This document shows positions 2,713 to 6,831 of a stretch of DNA of 64,000 nt, piece by piece. The position numbers were made by a program, and so were the translations under genes. Source of the stretch: Escherichia coli (GTDB lineage: Bacteria > Pseudomonadota > Gammaproteobacteria > Enterobacterales > Enterobacteriaceae); NCBI RefSeq assembly GCF_003334785.1, contig NZ_QOWV01000011.1, one strand, 5' to 3'. Under the pieces are notes generated by a model. It ran no database searches and was not told the DNA's origin. It worked only from the letters and a program-made list of their open reading frames with translations. The stretch's first letter is position 1; each line of letters begins with the position of its first letter.

Positions 2713-4140
2713 ATGAACACCGCACTTGCACAACAAATCGCCAATGAAGGCGGCGTCGAAGCCTGGATGATTGCGCAACAACATAAAAGCCTGCTGCGTT
2801 TTCTGACCTGTGGTAGCGTCGATGACGGCAAAAGTACCCTGATTGGTCGCCTGCTGCACGATACCCGCCAAATCTACGAAGATCAGCTCTCATCGCTGCA
2901 TAACGACAGTAAACGTCACGGCACCCAGGGCGAAAAGCTGGATCTGGCACTGCTGGTGGACGGCCTGCAAGCTGAGCGCGAACAGGGCATCACCATTGAC
3001 GTGGCTTACCGCTATTTCTCTACCGAGAAGCGTAAATTTATTATCGCCGACACCCCAGGGCACGAGCAGTACACCCGCAATATGGCGACTGGCGCATCGA
3101 CATGTGAACTGGCGATCTTACTGATCGATGCCCGTAAAGGCGTGCTCGATCAAACCCGTCGTCACAGTTTTATCTCCACACTGTTGGGGATCAAACATCT
3201 GGTCGTGGCGATCAACAAAATGGATCTGGTGGATTACAGTGAAAAGACGTTCACCCGTATTCGTGAAGATTATCTGACCTTTGCCGGGCAGCTGCCGGGT
3301 AATCTGGATATCCGCTTTGTGCCGCTCTCTGCACTGGAAGGCGACAACGTGGCTTCGCAAAGTGAAAGTATGGCGTGGTACAGCGGTCCAACACTGCTCG
3401 AAGTGCTGGAAACCGTGGAGATCCAGCGAGTGGTGGATGCTCAGCCAATGCGCTTCCCGGTGCAGTACGTTAATCGCCCGAATCTCGATTTTCGTGGTTA
3501 CGCCGGAACGCTGGCATCCGGTCGCGTAGAAGTCGGGCAACGAGTCAAAGTGCTGCCCTCTGGTGTGGAATCAAACGTCGCCCGGATCGTGACTTTTGAT
3601 GGCGATCGCGAAGAAGCCTTTGCCGGAGAAGCGATCACCCTGGTGCTGACGGATGAGATCGACATCAGCCGTGGCGATCTGCTGCTGGCGGCAGACGAAG
3701 CGTTACCAGCTGTGCAGAGCGCGTCGGTGGATGTGGTATGGATGGCGGAACAGCCGCTTTCCCCGGGCCAGAGTTATGACATCAAAATTGCCGGTAAGAA
3801 GACGCGTGCTCGTGTTGATGGCATTCGTTATCAGGTTGATATTAATAACCTTACCCAACGCGAAGTTGAAAACCTGCCGCTGAACGGCATCGGCCTGGTG
3901 GATCTCACTTTTGACGAGCCACTGGTGTTAGATCGTTATCAGCAAAACCCGGTTACCGGTGGGCTGATTTTTATCGATCGCCTGAGCAATGTGACCGTAG
4001 GTGCCGGTATGGTGCATGAGCCAGTTAGCCAGGCAACTGCTGCGCCATCTGAATTTAGTGCATTCGAACTGGAATTGAATGCCCTGGTTCGCCGCCACTT
4101 TCCACACTGGGGCGCGCGCGATTTGCTGGGGGATAAATAA
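2713..4140 (+). CDS. cysN: Sulfate adenylyltransferase subunit 1 (GTPase), 475 aa
   Basis: GTP-binding motifs ([18 protein letters not shown]); starts 2 nt after the cysD stop. Confidence 0.96.
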
Positions 4141-4745
4141 TGGCGCTGCATGACGAAAACGTCGTCTGGCATAGCCATCCGGTCACTGTGCAACAACGCG
4201 AGCTACACCACGGTCATCGTGGTGTAGTGCTGTGGTTTACCGGCCTCTCCGGGTCCGGTAAATCAACGGTCGCCGGGGCGCTGGAGGAGGCGTTACATAA
4301 ACTCGGCGTCAGTACGTATCTGCTGGATGGCGATAATGTTCGCCACGGATTATGCAGCGATCTCGGTTTTAGCGATGCCGATCGTAAAGAGAATATCCGT
4401 CGCGTCGGTGAAGTGGCGAATTTGATGGTTGAAGCCGGACTGGTGGTGCTGACCGCATTTATCTCGCCACACCGCGCCGAACGCCAGATGGTTCGTGAAC
4501 GCGTAGGAGAAGGGCGCTTTATCGAAGTGTTTGTCGATACGCCGCTGGCGATTTGCGAAGCCCGCGATCCAAAAGGCTTATATAAGAAAGCGCGTGCCGG
4601 TGAACTGCGCTACTTTACGGGAATAGATTCCGTTTACGAAGCGCCTGAATCGGCAGAAATTCATCTCAATGGTGAACAATTAGTAACAAATTTGGTACAG
4701 CAATTATTAGATCTGTTGAGACAGAACGATATTATCAGATCCTGA
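4140..4745 (+). CDS. cysC: Adenylylsulfate (APS) kinase, 201 aa
   Basis: P-loop GLSGSGKST; start overlaps the cysN stop (TAATG), suggesting translational coupling. Confidence 0.96.
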
Positions 4746-4794
4746 GACACCACCGGGTTTCCATGCCCGGTTCGTCAAAGTAACAGGATCAAAT

Positions 4795-5118
4795 ATGCGT
4801 AATAGCCATAACATTACACTAACAAATAACGACAGCCTTACTGAGGATGAAGAAACCACATGGTCACTGCCTGGTGCCGTGGTCGGTTTTATCTCCTGGT
4901 TATTTGCGCTGGCGATGCCGATGTTGATTTATGGCTCTAACACGCTGTTCTTCTTTATCTACACCTGGCCTTTCTTTCTTGCGCTGATGCCCGTCGCGGT
5001 AGTGGTGGGGATTGCGCTGCATTCATTGATGGACGGAAAGCTACGCTACAGTATTGTTTTCACCCTGGTGACAGTAGGCATTATGTTTGGCGCACTGTTT
5101 ATGTGGCTACTGGGCTAA
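4795..5118 (+). CDS. ygbE: Small inner-membrane protein of unknown function (DUF3561-like), 107 aa
   Basis: Three predicted hydrophobic helices; conserved position between cysC and ftsB. Confidence 0.85.
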   Translation: MRNSHNITLTNNDSLTEDEETTWSLPGAVVGFISWLFALAMPMLIYGSNTLFFFIYTWPFFLALMPVAVVVGIALHSLMDGKLRYSIVFTLVTVGIMFGALFMWLLG

Positions 5119-5311
5119 TTTGTACTTTCCCGTCTCCTCTGTTCATAATTCAAACCGTAACTAATAATGAGATTATGTTCTGCACGCCCTGGGTATACGT
5201 AACAATGGACAAATGTGGTACATTTGCCCGCGTTGTCGCGGTATCCCCAACAGAGGATGTAGAGTCGTCTTCGGATGCATGGGATGATGATGCCGTTTTT
5301 CAGGGGGCAGG

Positions 5312-5623
5312 ATGGGTAAACTAACGCTGCTGTTGCTGGCTATTCTGGTCTGGCTACAGTATTCGCTGTGGTTCGGTAAGAACGGTATACATGACTATAC
5401 CCGCGTCAATGATGATGTGGCGGCACAGCAAGCTACAAACGCGAAACTTAAAGCGCGAAACGATCAACTTTTTGCCGAAATTGACGATCTCAATGGCGGC
5501 CAGGAGGCGCTCGAAGAGCGTGCGCGTAATGAACTCAGCATGACCAGGCCGGGCGAAACTTTTTATCGTCTGGTGCCTGACGCGTCGAAGCGCGCACAGT
5601 CTGCGGGGCAAAACAATCGATAA
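5312..5623 (+). CDS. ftsB: Cell division protein FtsB, 103 aa
   Basis: N-terminal TM helix plus coiled coil ([25 protein letters not shown]...). Confidence 0.95.
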
Positions 5624-5641
5624 ATCAGCCCGGGAATTAAC

Positions 5642-6352
5642 ATGGCAACCACTCATTTGGATGTTTGCGCCGTGGTTCCGGCGGCCGGATTTGGCCGTCG
5701 AATGCAAACGGAATGTCCTAAGCAATATCTCTCAATCGGTAATCAAACCATTCTTGAACACTCGGTGCATGCGCTGCTGGCGCATCCCCGGGTGAAACGA
5801 GTCGTCATTGCCATAAGTCCTGGCGATAGCCGTTTTGCACAACTTCCTCTGGCGAATCATCCGCAAATCACCGTTGTAGATGGCGGTGATGAGCGTGCCG
5901 ATTCCGTGCTGGCAGGTCTGAAAGCCGCTGGCGACGCGCAGTGGGTATTGGTGCATGACGCCGCTCGTCCTTGTTTGCATCAGGATGACCTCGCGCGATT
6001 GTTGGCGTTGAGCGAAACCAGCCGCACGGGGGGGATCCTCGCCGCACCAGTGCGCGATACTATGAAACGTGCCGAACCGGGCAAAAATGCCATTGCTCAT
6101 ACCGTTGATCGCAACGGCTTATGGCACGCGCTGACGCCGCAATTTTTCCCTCGTGAGCTGTTACATGACTGTCTGACGCGCGCTCTAAATGAAGGCGCGA
6201 CTATTACCGACGAAGCCTCGGCGCTGGAATATTGCGGATTCCATCCTCAGTTGGTCGAAGGCCGTGCGGATAACATTAAAGTCACGCGCCCGGAAGATTT
6301 GGCACTGGCCGAGTTTTACCTCACCCGAACCATCCATCAGGAGAATACATAA
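5642..6352 (+). CDS. ispD: 2-C-methyl-D-erythritol 4-phosphate cytidylyltransferase, 236 aa
   Basis: Translation [22 protein letters not shown]...; MEP pathway. Confidence 0.96.
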
Positions 6353-6831
6353 TGCGAATTGGACACGGTTTTGACGTACATGCCTTTGGCGGTGAAGGCC
6401 CAATTATCATTGGTGGCGTACGCATTCCTTACGAAAAAGGATTGCTGGCGCATTCTGATGGCGACGTGGCGCTCCATGCGTTGACCGATGCATTGCTTGG
6501 CGCGGCGGCGCTGGGGGATATCGGCAAGCTGTTCCCGGATACCGATCCGGCATTTAAAGGTGCCGATAGCCGCGAGCTGCTACGCGAAGCCTGGCGTCGT
6601 ATTCAGGCGAAGGGTTATACCCTTGGCAACGTCGATGTCACTATCATCGCTCAGGCACCGAAGATGTTGCCGCACATTCCACAAATGCGCGTGTTTATTG
6701 CCGAAGATCTCGGCTGCCATATGGATGATGTTAACGTGAAAGCCACTACTACGGAAAAACTGGGATTTACCGGACGTGGGGAAGGGATTGCCTGTGAAGC
6801 GGTGGCGCTACTCATTAAGGCAACAAAATGA
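6352..6831 (+). CDS. ispF: 2-C-methyl-D-erythritol 2,4-cyclodiphosphate synthase, 159 aa
   Basis: Translation [39 protein letters not shown]...; start overlaps the ispD stop. Confidence 0.96.

Follow-up and report, generated by a model that had tools for sequence, protein, structure and literature searches.

The ygbE-ftsB gap of Escherichia coli probably holds the promoter and translation-initiation signals of the ftsB operon

The division protein FtsB is essential, and its amount must match that of FtsL and FtsQ. Its gene is situated downstream of the sulfur-regulated cysDNC genes and of ygbE, which raises the question how ftsB is expressed from this place and which part of the sequence between ygbE and ftsB could be responsible. 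We analysed the gap within a window of 64,000 nt of E. coli DNA (contig NZ_QOWV01000011.1), in which the gene order is cysN-cysC-ygbE-ftsB-ispDF-truD. The locus was found in 5426 of 5426 genomes, and the annotation of the gap contains no RNA gene. Among 81 species the length of the gap ranges from 77 to 292 nt. An initial annotation of the window had described a 193-bp gap with a long-range inverted repeat, a short GC hairpin and a 73-aa open reading frame, and had suggested a regulated ftsB leader. All of the described features are present at the places given for them (Table 1).

It has previously been reported in an operon table that ftsB is the first gene of its operon (PMC11731830). Upon 6-fold amplification ftsB mRNA scaled with the copy number (5.5x), and in the same experiment the cysDNC transcripts were damped by limiting CysB (PMC12107188). 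As ftsB mRNA follows the copy number and cysDNC is damped, the two are separately regulated.

Table 1. Positions of the features in and around the ygbE-ftsB gap (numbering of the window)
Feature	Position	Strand	Remarks
ygbE	4795-5118	+	107 aa, DUF3561 inner-membrane protein, three hydrophobic segments; RefSeq-annotated
73-aa ORF	5103-5324	+	GTG start; not a gene
ygbE-ftsB gap	5119-5311	+	193 nt; read as probable promoter and leader region of the ftsB operon
Inverted repeat, left arm TCCTCTGTT	5135-5143	+	judged incidental
Distal conserved block CATAATTCAAACCGTAAC...	5144-5181	+	possible third promoter: CATAAT (5144-5149), TTGTAC (5120-5125) 18 nt upstream
Candidate promoter P2, extended -10 TG-g-TACATT, TGGTACATT	5216-5224	+	predicted start about 5230-5232
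GC hairpin CCGCG-TTGT-CGCGG	5228-5241	+	in the discriminator/start region of P2
Leader stem, 5' arm GCGGUAUCCCC	5238-5248	+	pairs with 5286-5296
Inverted repeat, right arm AACAGAGGA	5249-5257	+	shares bases with the 5' arm of the local hairpin
Local hairpin, stem GAGGAUG / CGUCUUC, loop motif (G)UAGAGU(C)	5253-5272	+	pair probability 0.95
Two-part motif: GTAGAGTC (5259-5266), variable spacer, TGGGATGAT (5280-5288)	5259-5288	+	candidate compact promoter P1
11-codon upstream ORF	5284-5319	+	TAA stop overlaps ftsB codons 2-3
Leader stem, 3' arm GAUGAUGCCGU	5286-5300	+	followed directly by UUUUU (5296-5300); terminator-like geometry
ftsB Shine-Dalgarno AGGGGG (5302-5307) and start codon (5312-5314)	5302-5314	+	anti-SD duplex -9.4 kcal/mol
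ftsB	5312-5623	+	first gene of the ftsB-ispD-ispF-truD-umpG-pcm unit

The gene upstream of the gap had been taken for that of a small membrane protein of no known function, and this description was borne out. YgbE matches Pfam PF12084 (DUF3561) with all of its 107 residues (E = 1.8e-53) as well as the NCBIfam equivalog NF008001 (159.7 bits, cut-off 114), and a 19-residue Kyte-Doolittle scan gave hydrophobic segments at residues 23-48, 50-81 and 83-107 approximately, the topology being a prediction. The protein is 100% identical to b2749, i.e., it is the K-12 protein itself. Overexpression of ygbE lowers ompC, raises arnBCADT and confers resistance to phage T4 (PMC7553319), and in Salmonella U288 the gene is disrupted with no obvious cost (PMC8065163). 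We regard ygbE as an ordinary, dispensable DUF3561 membrane-protein gene. It was found directly 5' of ftsB in 80 of 80 Enterobacteriaceae loci and also in Pantoea, and was absent from the Xenorhabdus and Serratia ftsB loci examined.

We considered two alternatives for the inverted repeat in the gap. Either it folds the leader into a regulatory structure controlling ftsB or it is coincidental. The repeat is perfect over 9 bp, one more than had been quoted, and of 2000 shuffles that preserved the dinucleotides of the 193-nt gap only 4.75% contained a perfect repeat of at least 9 bp (18% for at least 8 bp), a figure that holds for a single gap, one among many in the 64-kb window. Against a regulatory fold, each of the nine pairs has a probability of only 0.02-0.05 when the transcript 5119-5330 is folded, the repeat is absent from the minimum-energy fold of the gap, and its right arm is taken by the local hairpin instead. 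The whole gap folds no better than its shuffles (z = +0.40), and neither does the leader 5230-5340 (z = -0.34). Furthermore, conservation is lacking, since the left arm varies among Escherichia lineages and no compensating change accompanies it: this arm reads TATTCTGTT, TACTCTGTT, TCCGCTGTT or CATTCTGTC in other lineages and is altered in E. albertii, the cryptic clades and about 1050 E. coli genomes, the right arm being constant throughout. Both arms are located in stretches that are not alignable outside Escherichia. The left arm is also situated 5' of every conserved promoter candidate save the weakest and, lying 5' of the best candidate, would therefore be missing from that transcript. 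With shuffles, pair probabilities and conservation all speaking against it, the structure was rejected; a regulatory fold made by these arms is highly improbable, and the repeat is a coincidence that has no part in ftsB control. As evidence for a structured leader, for which the initial annotation had used it, it stays at chance level with a pairing probability of about 0.05 and fails the conservation criterion that the annotation itself had named. The 73-aa open reading frame had already been suspected not to be real. Its frame is open in the window, in E. albertii and in two other Escherichia, but is cut to 6-21 codons in one Escherichia lineage, in Citrobacter and in Salmonella; its Shine-Dalgarno sequence is very weak (-1.5 kcal/mol), and a protein-family profile search gave no family match. 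The comparative data thus refute it as a gene, and there is practically no chance that it encodes a small protein overlapping the end of ygbE and the start of ftsB.

With these two false leads removed, the suggestion of a regulated ftsB leader can be kept in part: ftsB appears to have a control region of its own, but the inverted repeat is no evidence for it. What is conserved, in place of the repeat, is a promoter motif, a local hairpin and the stretch of 50 nt that adjoins the start codon. Conservation across 80 Enterobacteriaceae species is seen for three features: an extended -10 motif, the GC hairpin that comes after it and a proximal element. The identity is 0.92 over positions -32 to -1 relative to ftsB, 0.36 over -52 to -33 and 0.63 at the third codon positions of ftsB; for positions -16 to -4 it lies at 96-100% in 76 species outside Escherichia. 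Throughout the order the last 50 nt or so before ftsB are as conserved as amino-acid-changing positions.

This proximal element (5259-5311) consists of GTAGAGTC, a variable spacer of 16-18 nt, TGGGATGAT, a U-run and a strong Shine-Dalgarno sequence, a duplex of -8 kcal/mol with the anti-Shine-Dalgarno being reached by only 1.3% of random positions. Among 71 distinct sequences the spacer between the two blocks is 17 nt long in 61, 18 nt in seven and 16 nt in three, and a TGn precedes the second block in 65. If the motif is read as a promoter (P1), the hexamers agree with the consensus in three (TAGAGT, -35-like) and four (GATGAT, -10-like) of six positions. The -35-like block agrees poorly with TTGACA and is itself variable, and the T that ends GATGAT is exchanged in some lineages, among them about 1050 E. 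coli genomes. The geometry of the motif is the same in Xenorhabdus, Serratia, Pantoea and two further outgroups, in one of which GATGAT is changed to GAAGAT; here the upstream ATG is lost, and the A at position 2 and the T at position 6 of the hexamer are kept. The first three genera have retained the proximal element, also where ygbE or cysC is missing. Its upstream neighbours are cysC without ygbE in Xenorhabdus, ygbE in Pantoea and an unrelated divergent gene in Serratia. Since the Serratia gene is divergent, a promoter must lie in that gap. These gene orders indicate that ygbE was inserted between cysC and an already existing ftsB control element.

A further candidate promoter, P2, carries the TG at -15/-14 and the T-12, A-11 and T-7 that characterize a sigma-70 extended -10 promoter. 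The pattern TGnTAnAnT, expected by chance about once in 4096 positions, occurs in 68 of 81 Enterobacteriaceae gaps, and the start predicted from it lies 78-82 nt from the ATG with four exceptions at 94-100 nt, so the distance is nearly fixed though the intervening sequence is variable. Its variants TACATT, TAAATT and TACAGT all retain T-12, A-11, A-9 and T-7; in 13 species the motif is lost altogether. P2 is embedded in a 15-bp palindrome, AAATGTggtACATTT, which is no promoter feature and could be an operator. The short GC hairpin of the initial annotation is indeed present and conserved: a GC stem of -5.6 to -9.9 kcal/mol is found at this place in about 45 of 61 distinct leaders, with varying loops (UUGU, AUA, AUGA, UUUA, AGUA, GUUAC, AUGU). 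Growth-rate-controlled promoters have G+C-rich discriminators, and that of P2 resembles them.

The distal block is kept in Escherichia, Citrobacter, Salmonella and the E. asburiae group, and its part CAAACCGTAAC also in Buttiauxella and Cedecea; CATAATT is kept in the species with a 78-nt gap. By rough consensus scoring the distal CATAAT candidate reaches 8.5 bits. The promoter candidates score 6.0-8.5 bits, and about 0.3-0.8% of the window positions score as high; consensus scoring therefore cannot tell the candidates from chance. A stricter promoter scan found none on the + strand. The only ftsB start found comes from K. pneumoniae (2 reads, 3 nt before the ATG) and fits neither P1 nor P2. 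That the motifs act as promoters, and where their transcripts would start, we infer from conservation and geometry.

As regards the RNA, the loop motif of the local hairpin is enclosed by stems of different sequence in Salmonella, Citrobacter, Klebsiella, Trabulsiella, Pantoea and Serratia. At least five pairs span the motif in 63% of 76 sequences (mean z -0.98). The hairpin was not found in Buttiauxella, Cedecea, Atlantibacter and Lelliottia, in a fixed register around GTAGAGT only 52-57% of the cells are paired, and an RNAalifold consensus of -66 to +21 contained invariant pairs only and no covariation. Many genera do have a real hairpin around GTAGAGT, but its register is not constant, and about a third of them lack it. 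As GTAGAGT is flanked by different stems in many genera, a role at the RNA level is suggested, which a -35 element would not need.

A longer stem could form in the leader, and we considered whether it might act as an attenuator or insulator. In transcripts from the promoter at 5216-5224, or in read-through from cysDNC-ygbE, the leader stem enclosing the local hairpin and followed by the U5 tract would cause termination or pausing 12-16 nt before the ftsB start or release an RNA of about 70 nt, and an alternative pairing (5241-5246 with 5273-5278 in E. coli) would let the RNA polymerase pass. The stem is found in the minimum-energy folds of most 'core' genera. At least five of the six bases before the U-run are paired in these folds in 73% of 63 leaders (mean z -1.28), and 78% of the cells of the 11-pair helix are standard pairs compared with 31-42% for non-periodic slides. 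At its base, which directly borders on the U-run, the stem is rich in G+C (CGGUAUC at 5239-5245 with GAUGCCG at 5289-5295), the element lies at a constant distance from the promoter, and double changes occur in two lineages, C. amalonaticus L018 (T-A to C-G) and the C. freundii group (C-G to T-A). Because of the GAU repeat, the covariation score (0.194) nevertheless does not exceed that for the partner shifted by -3 (0.201). In E. coli the probability of the stem is only 0.22, since GUAUCC (5241-5246) prefers GGAUGC (5273-5278; 0.71). The stem encloses about 40-43 nt, which is outside the compact hairpin usual for intrinsic terminators, and a terminator scan of 4600-5700 gave 0 terminator-like sites. 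Buttiauxella, Cedecea, Atlantibacter, the species with a 78-nt gap, Serratia and Xenorhabdus lack its 5' arm, although they still conserve the 3' arm. In the available part of the E. coli Term-seq tables (Adams et al. 2021) no 3' end was found at the U-run and none for ygbE; the sole end associated with ftsB there is internal to the reading frame (K-12 2872693, corresponding to 5439; the K-12 coordinate equals 2878132 minus the position in the window). If expression is low, a weak 3' end at the U-run could have been masked. In the amplification experiment FtsB protein rose less than ftsB mRNA, as attenuation would allow, though the authors attribute this to proteolysis (PMC12107188). On balance attenuation in this leader appears unlikely.

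Translational control by the upstream reading frame was weighed as well. Starting at the AUG at 5284 (or 5287/5290), its 11 codons run across the ftsB Shine-Dalgarno sequence to the UAA at 5317-5319, so that its translation would couple to ftsB initiation or compete with it. An ATG is present at -28 in 79 of 81 Enterobacteriaceae species and at -25 in the other two, and a short ATG-initiated frame ending at +8 or +13 in all 81. In an ungapped comparison the ATG at -28 is 91% identical, the following six bases being variable, and conservation reaches 93-100%, compared with 63% on average, at the third positions of ftsB codons 2-6, which supply the stops of both shifted frames. On the other side, the Shine-Dalgarno sequences of the upstream ATGs are weak (-3.3 to -4.0 kcal/mol, reached by 20% of random positions), a 1-nt insertion in the T-run (6-T variants) shifts the frame in seven species, and CCG TTT TTC AGG GGG shows no synonymous variation; the constraint is therefore on the nucleotides and not on the peptide. 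In the outgroups the upstream ATG is in frame with ftsB (Xenorhabdus), lost (GAAGAT) or, with GGC as ftsB codon 2, without an early stop, and a literature search found no paper linking ftsB to an upstream reading frame. We regard this kind of control as quite unlikely. A broader proposal would assign to the whole element of about 55 nt before ftsB a dedicated function in post-transcriptional control, as a so far undescribed cis-regulatory RNA of the divisome comprising the hairpin with its GURGAGU loop, UGGGAUGAU, the U-run, the Shine-Dalgarno sequence and the first codons. It might act as a protein- or RNA-binding leader or as a switch between upstream reading frame and stem, and would adjust the synthesis of FtsB to that of FtsL and FtsQ, its partners at 1:1:1. 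The element persists from Escherichia to Xenorhabdus and Serratia irrespective of its upstream neighbours. We consider the proposal doubtful. Repression by CsrA was the last alternative: dimers on the four GGAUG motifs of the leader (5255, 5273, 5282 and 5310), the last of which overlaps the ftsB start codon, would block translation. AGAGGAUGU and CAGGAUGG resemble the CsrA SELEX consensus (RUACARGGAUGU), and UGGGA is conserved order-wide, but of the four motifs only a single one is kept outside Escherichia. In the table of Potts et al. (2017) ftsB is entered with No/No/No/No for CsrA crosslinks and with values of 0.33 (RPF) and 0.04 (RNA), NS, i.e., neither a crosslink nor a significant change was seen by CLIP-seq, ribosome profiling and RNA-seq. 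CsrA binding to the repeats was rejected on these published CLIP and profiling data, and repression of this kind is extremely improbable.

We also looked for other known elements. Rfam gave no match at E <= 10 in window positions 4000-6500, and in 8 other loci (E <= 1) only a chance match far 5' of the gap (L010, 1450-1523). Binding sites were compared by eye with consensus sequences. For sigma-54 the GG-GC spacing is wrong, the sigma-28-like GAAAGTTA-N12-GCCGTTTT is close in some genera and not in E. coli, the half-sites for CRP are too close, and none of sigma-E, sigma-32, DnaA box and MraZ repeats fits. Our literature searches yielded nothing on the regulation of the ftsB gene: they found no paper for ygbE and ftsB together, one general review only for ftsB with UTR, sRNA or Hfq, and nothing on the leader for ftsB with ppGpp.

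Our preferred reading is that the gap probably serves the essential ftsB-ispDF(-truD-umpG-pcm) operon as promoter and translation-initiation region and that two conserved modules in it do the work. Its purpose would be to express ftsB independently of the sulfur-regulated cysDNC(-ygbE) transcript upstream. Module 1, specific to the Enterobacteriaceae, would comprise the sigma-70-type extended -10 element TGgTACATT and the G+C-rich palindromic discriminator at 5228-5241, with a predicted start at about 5231 and a leader of about 80 nt. Module 2, common to the Enterobacterales, would be the proximal element including the AGGGGG Shine-Dalgarno sequence and the AUG, that is, a second, compact TG-extended promoter, starting at about 5295 and giving a leader of some 16 nt, joined to a ribosome-binding region under strong constraint. 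In transcripts starting further upstream module 2 would be partly folded into the hairpin at 5253-5272, and in many genera the longer transcripts would form the additional stem of 5238-5248 with 5286-5296. The terminator-like leader stem and the 11-codon upstream reading frame are possible extras. Promoters and ribosome-binding regions are expected at this place, and nothing found here is surprising in kind. The comparison locates the control of ftsB in the last 50 nt or so and in a promoter motif at a fixed distance, which offers precise targets for mutagenesis.

Several features of the gap can be compared with known systems. As in intrinsic terminators and attenuators such as the pyrBI and trp leaders, the G+C-rich base of the ftsB stem abuts a U5 tract, the stem is located just 5' of the ribosome-binding site and there are alternative pairings. 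In contrast to these leaders, the ftsB stem encloses about 40 nt with a hairpin of its own and is not universal, there is no leader peptide bearing regulatory codons, and the available part of the E. coli Term-seq tables shows no 3' end. Upstream reading frames overlapping start codons are known from translational coupling and from leader peptides such as mgtL and pheL. The ftsB upstream frame is likewise short and ends a few bases past the main AUG in all Enterobacteriaceae examined, but it has a weak Shine-Dalgarno sequence, its peptide is not conserved across the frame-shift variants and it is not kept separate in the outgroups.

The candidate P2 is closest to the extended -10 sigma-70 promoters such as galP1: the TG is placed one base 5' of TAnAnT, there is no good -35 element, and conservation falls exactly on the positions that matter (T-12, A-11, T-7). 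It differs in that it sits in a 15-bp palindrome. Among division genes, ftsB is located outside the dcw cluster, in an operon with isoprenoid, tRNA-modification and stationary-phase genes, and the TGGGN repeats at 10-bp spacing of the MraZ type are not present before it. Control regions with multiple promoters typify other E. coli division genes, e.g., ftsQAZ and mraZ/Pmra of the dcw cluster. Like these, ftsB is an essential divisome gene that lies behind several candidate promoters and downstream of an unrelated, differently regulated unit.

The stretch 4700-5400 of this Escherichia coli window, which was found in 5426 of 5426 complete genomes, is annotated with cysC, ygbE (DUF3561 family protein) and ftsB, corresponding to b2750, b2749 and b2748 on the minus strand of K-12. 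The 193-nt gap between ygbE and ftsB described in the initial annotation was confirmed, and the K-12 annotation contains neither an RNA gene nor any other feature in it. This gap is most likely a compound promoter and translation-initiation region. Further upstream, a hairpin is situated 7 nt past the cysC stop codon in the 49-nt cysC–ygbE spacer; it lacks a U-tract and was not called a terminator.

Positions of genes and sequence features in the window
Feature	Position	Sequence	Source
cysN	2713-4140		ORF table
cysC	4140-4745		ORF table
Spacer hairpin	4752-4771	ACCGGG-TTTCCATG-CCCGGT	
ygbE	4795-5118		ORF table
Antisense promoter site (minus strand)	5080-5109	TAGCCA-N18-CATAAT	
73-aa ORF	5103-5324		
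ygbE–ftsB gap	5119-5311		
Inverted repeat, left arm	5135-5143	TCCTCTGTT	
Distal block	5144-5181	CATAATTCAAACCGTAAC...	
Direct repeat	5156-5161, 5198-5203	CGTAAC	
15-bp palindrome	within 5207-5229	AAATGTggtACATTT	
Extended -10 motif	5216-5224	TGGTACATT	
GC hairpin	5228-5241	CCGCG-TTGT-CGCGG	
Long leader stem, 5' arm	5238-5248	GCGGCAUC(G)UCC	
Inverted repeat, right arm	5249-5257	AACAGAGGA	
Long leader stem, 3' arm	5286-5296	GGGAUGAUGAUGCCG(U)	
ftsB	5312-5623		ORF table
ispD	5642-6352		ORF table
ispF	6352-6831		ORF table
truD	from 6828		ORF table

Directly upstream of ftsB, positions -32 to -1 show a mean identity to E. coli of 0.92 in 76 non-Escherichia species. In the same species the identity is 0.95, 0.98 and 0.63 at the first, second and third codon positions of ftsB, and 0.36 at -52 to -33. 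The consensus of this proximal element reads GT(A/G)GAGTC, a variable spacer, TGGGATGATGATGCCGTTTTTCAGGGGGCAGG and the ATG. Of the 71 distinct sequences, 61 have a spacer of 17 nt, 7 one of 18 nt and 3 one of 16 nt, and 65 have TGn ahead of the GATGAT-like hexamers. The same arrangement with 17-nt spacing is found in Pantoea, Xenorhabdus (GTGGCGTC...TGGGATGAT), Serratia (GTGGAGTC...TGGGATGAT) and two outgroup contigs (GTAGCGTC...TGGGATGAT and GTAGCATC...TGGGAAGAT); the element hence belongs to ftsB, is older than ygbE and is common to several families of the Enterobacterales. The ftsB Shine-Dalgarno sequence is strong (-9.4 kcal/mol; -8 is reached by just 1.3% of random positions). Four copies of GGATG fall within the final 60 nt of the gap (5255, 5273, 5282, 5310), only the one at 5282 being widely conserved. 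In Xenorhabdus vietnamensis three tandem units of about 13 nt, GGCCTTATAAATG-like, adjoin the upstream side of the element within the A+T-rich cysC–ftsB spacer (positions 1880-1935 of the comparison locus L084).

Between 77 and 292 nt long in the Enterobacteriaceae loci, the gap contains an extended -10 motif, TGnTAnAnT, in 68 of 81 cases. Apart from four species, 78-82 nt separate the predicted start from the ATG, and the sequence in between is highly variable. The hexamer variants TACATT, TAAATT and TACAGT differ solely where a -10 hexamer tolerates change. Just 3' of the motif lies a G+C-rich palindrome, the short GC hairpin of the initial annotation; about 45 of 61 leaders retain its GC stem, with loops that vary. 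The motif itself lies within a 15-bp palindrome (extended form GGACAAATGT/ACATTTGCCC, 90% complementary), which is conserved in most genera, though not in Buttiauxella or Cedecea, and could be an operator for a dimeric regulator overlapping the promoter. The distal block is common to Escherichia, Citrobacter, Salmonella and part of Enterobacter, with a shorter version in Buttiauxella and Cedecea. Both copies of the CGTAAC direct repeat, 42 nt apart, are kept in Citrobacter and Salmonella.

The 13 species without the extended -10 motif have a gap of 77-79 nt (loci L032, L034, L037, L039, L048, L049, L053, L058, L062, L063, L067, L078 and one more). They belong to Lelliottia, the Enterobacter hormaechei group, Pseudenterobacter and Huaxiibacter. 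About 78 nt before ftsB, CATAATT is joined to ACCCCG in what looks like a clean deletion. Neither the extended -10 block nor the leader stem's 5' arm is left, and this natural deletion shows that both are dispensable.

Rich medium switches the CysB regulon off, yet ftsB is essential there, so that a promoter downstream of the cysD promoter should be required. In Serratia the ftsB promoter must be in the gap since the upstream gene, a different one from ygbE, is divergent; the proximal element is the sole sequence shared there. In the published operon string ftsB is the first gene of ftsB-ispD-ispF-truD-umpG-pcm (PMC11731830). When the region was amplified six-fold, ftsB mRNA increased 5.5-fold, whereas limiting CysB damped the cysDNC transcripts (PMC12107188); the two are thus under separate control. 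FtsB protein rose just 1.9-fold at six copies compared with the 5.5-fold rise of the mRNA; the authors ascribe this to degradation of unpartnered FtsB (PMC12107188), and the ftsB leader may make a translational contribution. For Klebsiella pneumoniae a start 3 nt upstream of the ftsB ATG (NC_009648, position 3406588; 2 reads) is listed in a table of very short leaders (PMC3415461 supplement). This sole ftsB start found matches neither candidate promoter and may be a processed end.

The initial annotation had proposed a regulated ftsB leader on account of a long-range inverted repeat. The conserved control region of ftsB bears out the first part, but the structural evidence fails. A 9-bp repeat exists; however, among 2000 dinucleotide-preserving shuffles of the gap, itself one of many across 64 kb, perfect inverted repeats reached 9 bp or more in 4.75% and 8 bp or more in 18%, which is within chance expectation. 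The region folds no better than shuffled sequences (z = +0.40 for 5119-5340, z = -0.34 for 5230-5340). In the ensemble of the 5119-5330 transcript the nine repeat pairs have a probability of 0.02-0.05, and a local hairpin at 5253-5272 takes the right arm with a probability of 0.95. Nor is the repeat conserved, an outcome that the initial annotation itself had listed as refuting its proposal: across Escherichia the right arm is constant and the left arm occurs as TATTCTGTT, TACTCTGTT, TCCGCTGTT or CATTCTGTC, one of these variants representing about 1050 of 5426 E. coli genomes, and outside the genus neither arm can be aligned. The repeat is a coincidence. The 73-aa ORF, already suspected not to be real, is not a gene. 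Its frame is open in four Escherichia and cut to 6-21 codons in another Escherichia lineage, Citrobacter and Salmonella, its GTG start has nearly no Shine-Dalgarno sequence (-1.5 kcal/mol), and no family match was obtained.

The ATG at 5284 starts an 11-codon ORF ending at TAA 5317-5319 within ftsB codons 2-3, and such an ORF is present in 81 of 81 Enterobacteriaceae. Against a role of the peptide or the ORF stand its invariant codons with zero synonymous variation, a frame-shifting additional T in seven species, the weak Shine-Dalgarno sequence and the ATG of Xenorhabdus, which shares the ftsB frame. In one outgroup the ATG is gone (GAAGAT), and the promoter-critical A and T are retained. The GTAGAGT block lies in the loop of a predicted hairpin whose stem changes from genus to genus (E. 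coli GAGGAUG/CGUCUUC, Salmonella GUCCUC.GUG/CAC.GAGGAC, a Citrobacter CCUCUGAG/CUCAGAGG, Trabulsiella CCGGG/CCCGG, Pantoea CACCGG/CCGGUG, Serratia GCCGUU/AACGGC). At least five pairs span the block in 63% of 76 sequences (mean z = -0.98), only 52-57% of cells are paired in a fixed-register count, and no hairpin surrounds it in Buttiauxella, Cedecea, Atlantibacter and Lelliottia. In most 'core' genera a long leader stem is followed directly by the U-run, a geometry that is terminator-like in the predicted fold. In 73% of 63 leaders, five or all of the six bases preceding the U-run are paired (mean z = -1.28). The 11-pair helix has standard pairs in 78% of cells against 31-42% in non-periodic slid controls; slid by -3 it still reaches 70% with an equal covariation score owing to a GAU repeat, and double changes occur in just two or three lineages. 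In E. coli its probability is 0.22, since GUAUCC (5241-5246) pairs preferentially with the E. coli-specific GGAUGC (5273-5278; probability 0.71). Both hairpin and long stem are lineage-variable. Rfam gave no family match for the gap in E. coli or eight other species. The Term-seq tables (Adams et al. 2021) have no 3' end at the leader U-run and one ftsB 3' end, inside the ORF at 5439 (K-12 2872693, minus strand). This end is strong, not Rho-dependent, 127 nt into the ORF and between two CGCGAAAC direct repeats. CsrA control of the leader is excluded by published data, and our literature search found nothing on an ftsB leader.

We favour two promoters: the putative extended -10 promoter, specific to the Enterobacteriaceae, and an older, compact, TG-extended one built from the two-part proximal motif. 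The latter would give a leader of about 16 nt consisting of U-run and Shine-Dalgarno sequence. In longer transcripts the proximal sequence would also be read as RNA, as suggested by the stems flanking GTAGAGT and by the pairing potential between the 3' block and the early leader; there it might work as a partial terminator or as an insulator, or mask the upstream AUGs.

The ygbE gene itself is already known. Its product matches DUF3561 over the full length (Pfam, E = 1.8e-53) and the NCBIfam equivalog NF008001, and three hydrophobic segments agree with the annotated three-helix membrane protein. Its overexpression causes a strong drop in ompC, a rise in arnBCADT and a block of phage T4 (PMC7553319). 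Salmonella of the U288 clade carry a disrupted ygbE, and pig-colon colonisation was unaffected by transposon insertions in the gene (PMC8065163). It lies directly upstream of ftsB in all 80 Enterobacteriaceae loci collected around FtsB (one per species) and is present in Pantoea, it is missing between cysC and ftsB in Xenorhabdus vietnamensis, and ftsB has another neighbour in Serratia; ygbE is thus a lineage-specific insertion upstream of ftsB. Within E. coli, ygbE is a divergence hot spot (4795-5154 against E. coli SCU-116, L001), about 1050 of 5426 genomes carrying an allele 90-95% identical over 4700-5400. The L001 allele has about 31 differences within ygbE and another 6 over the gap's first 36 nt, then none at 5155-5287, one at 5288 and the next at 5401. 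This points either to an old recombinant allele or to a relaxation of constraint on ygbE beside a strongly constrained ftsB control region. A strict promoter scan of 4600-5700 returned a single site, antisense at the ygbE 3' end, below the shuffle expectation of 1.6.

The sole notable point is that about 50 nt are conserved across the order at nonsynonymous-like levels. The gap is a new, well-delimited example of elements whose kinds are all known: promoters, ribosome-binding regions, leader stems and short upstream ORFs.
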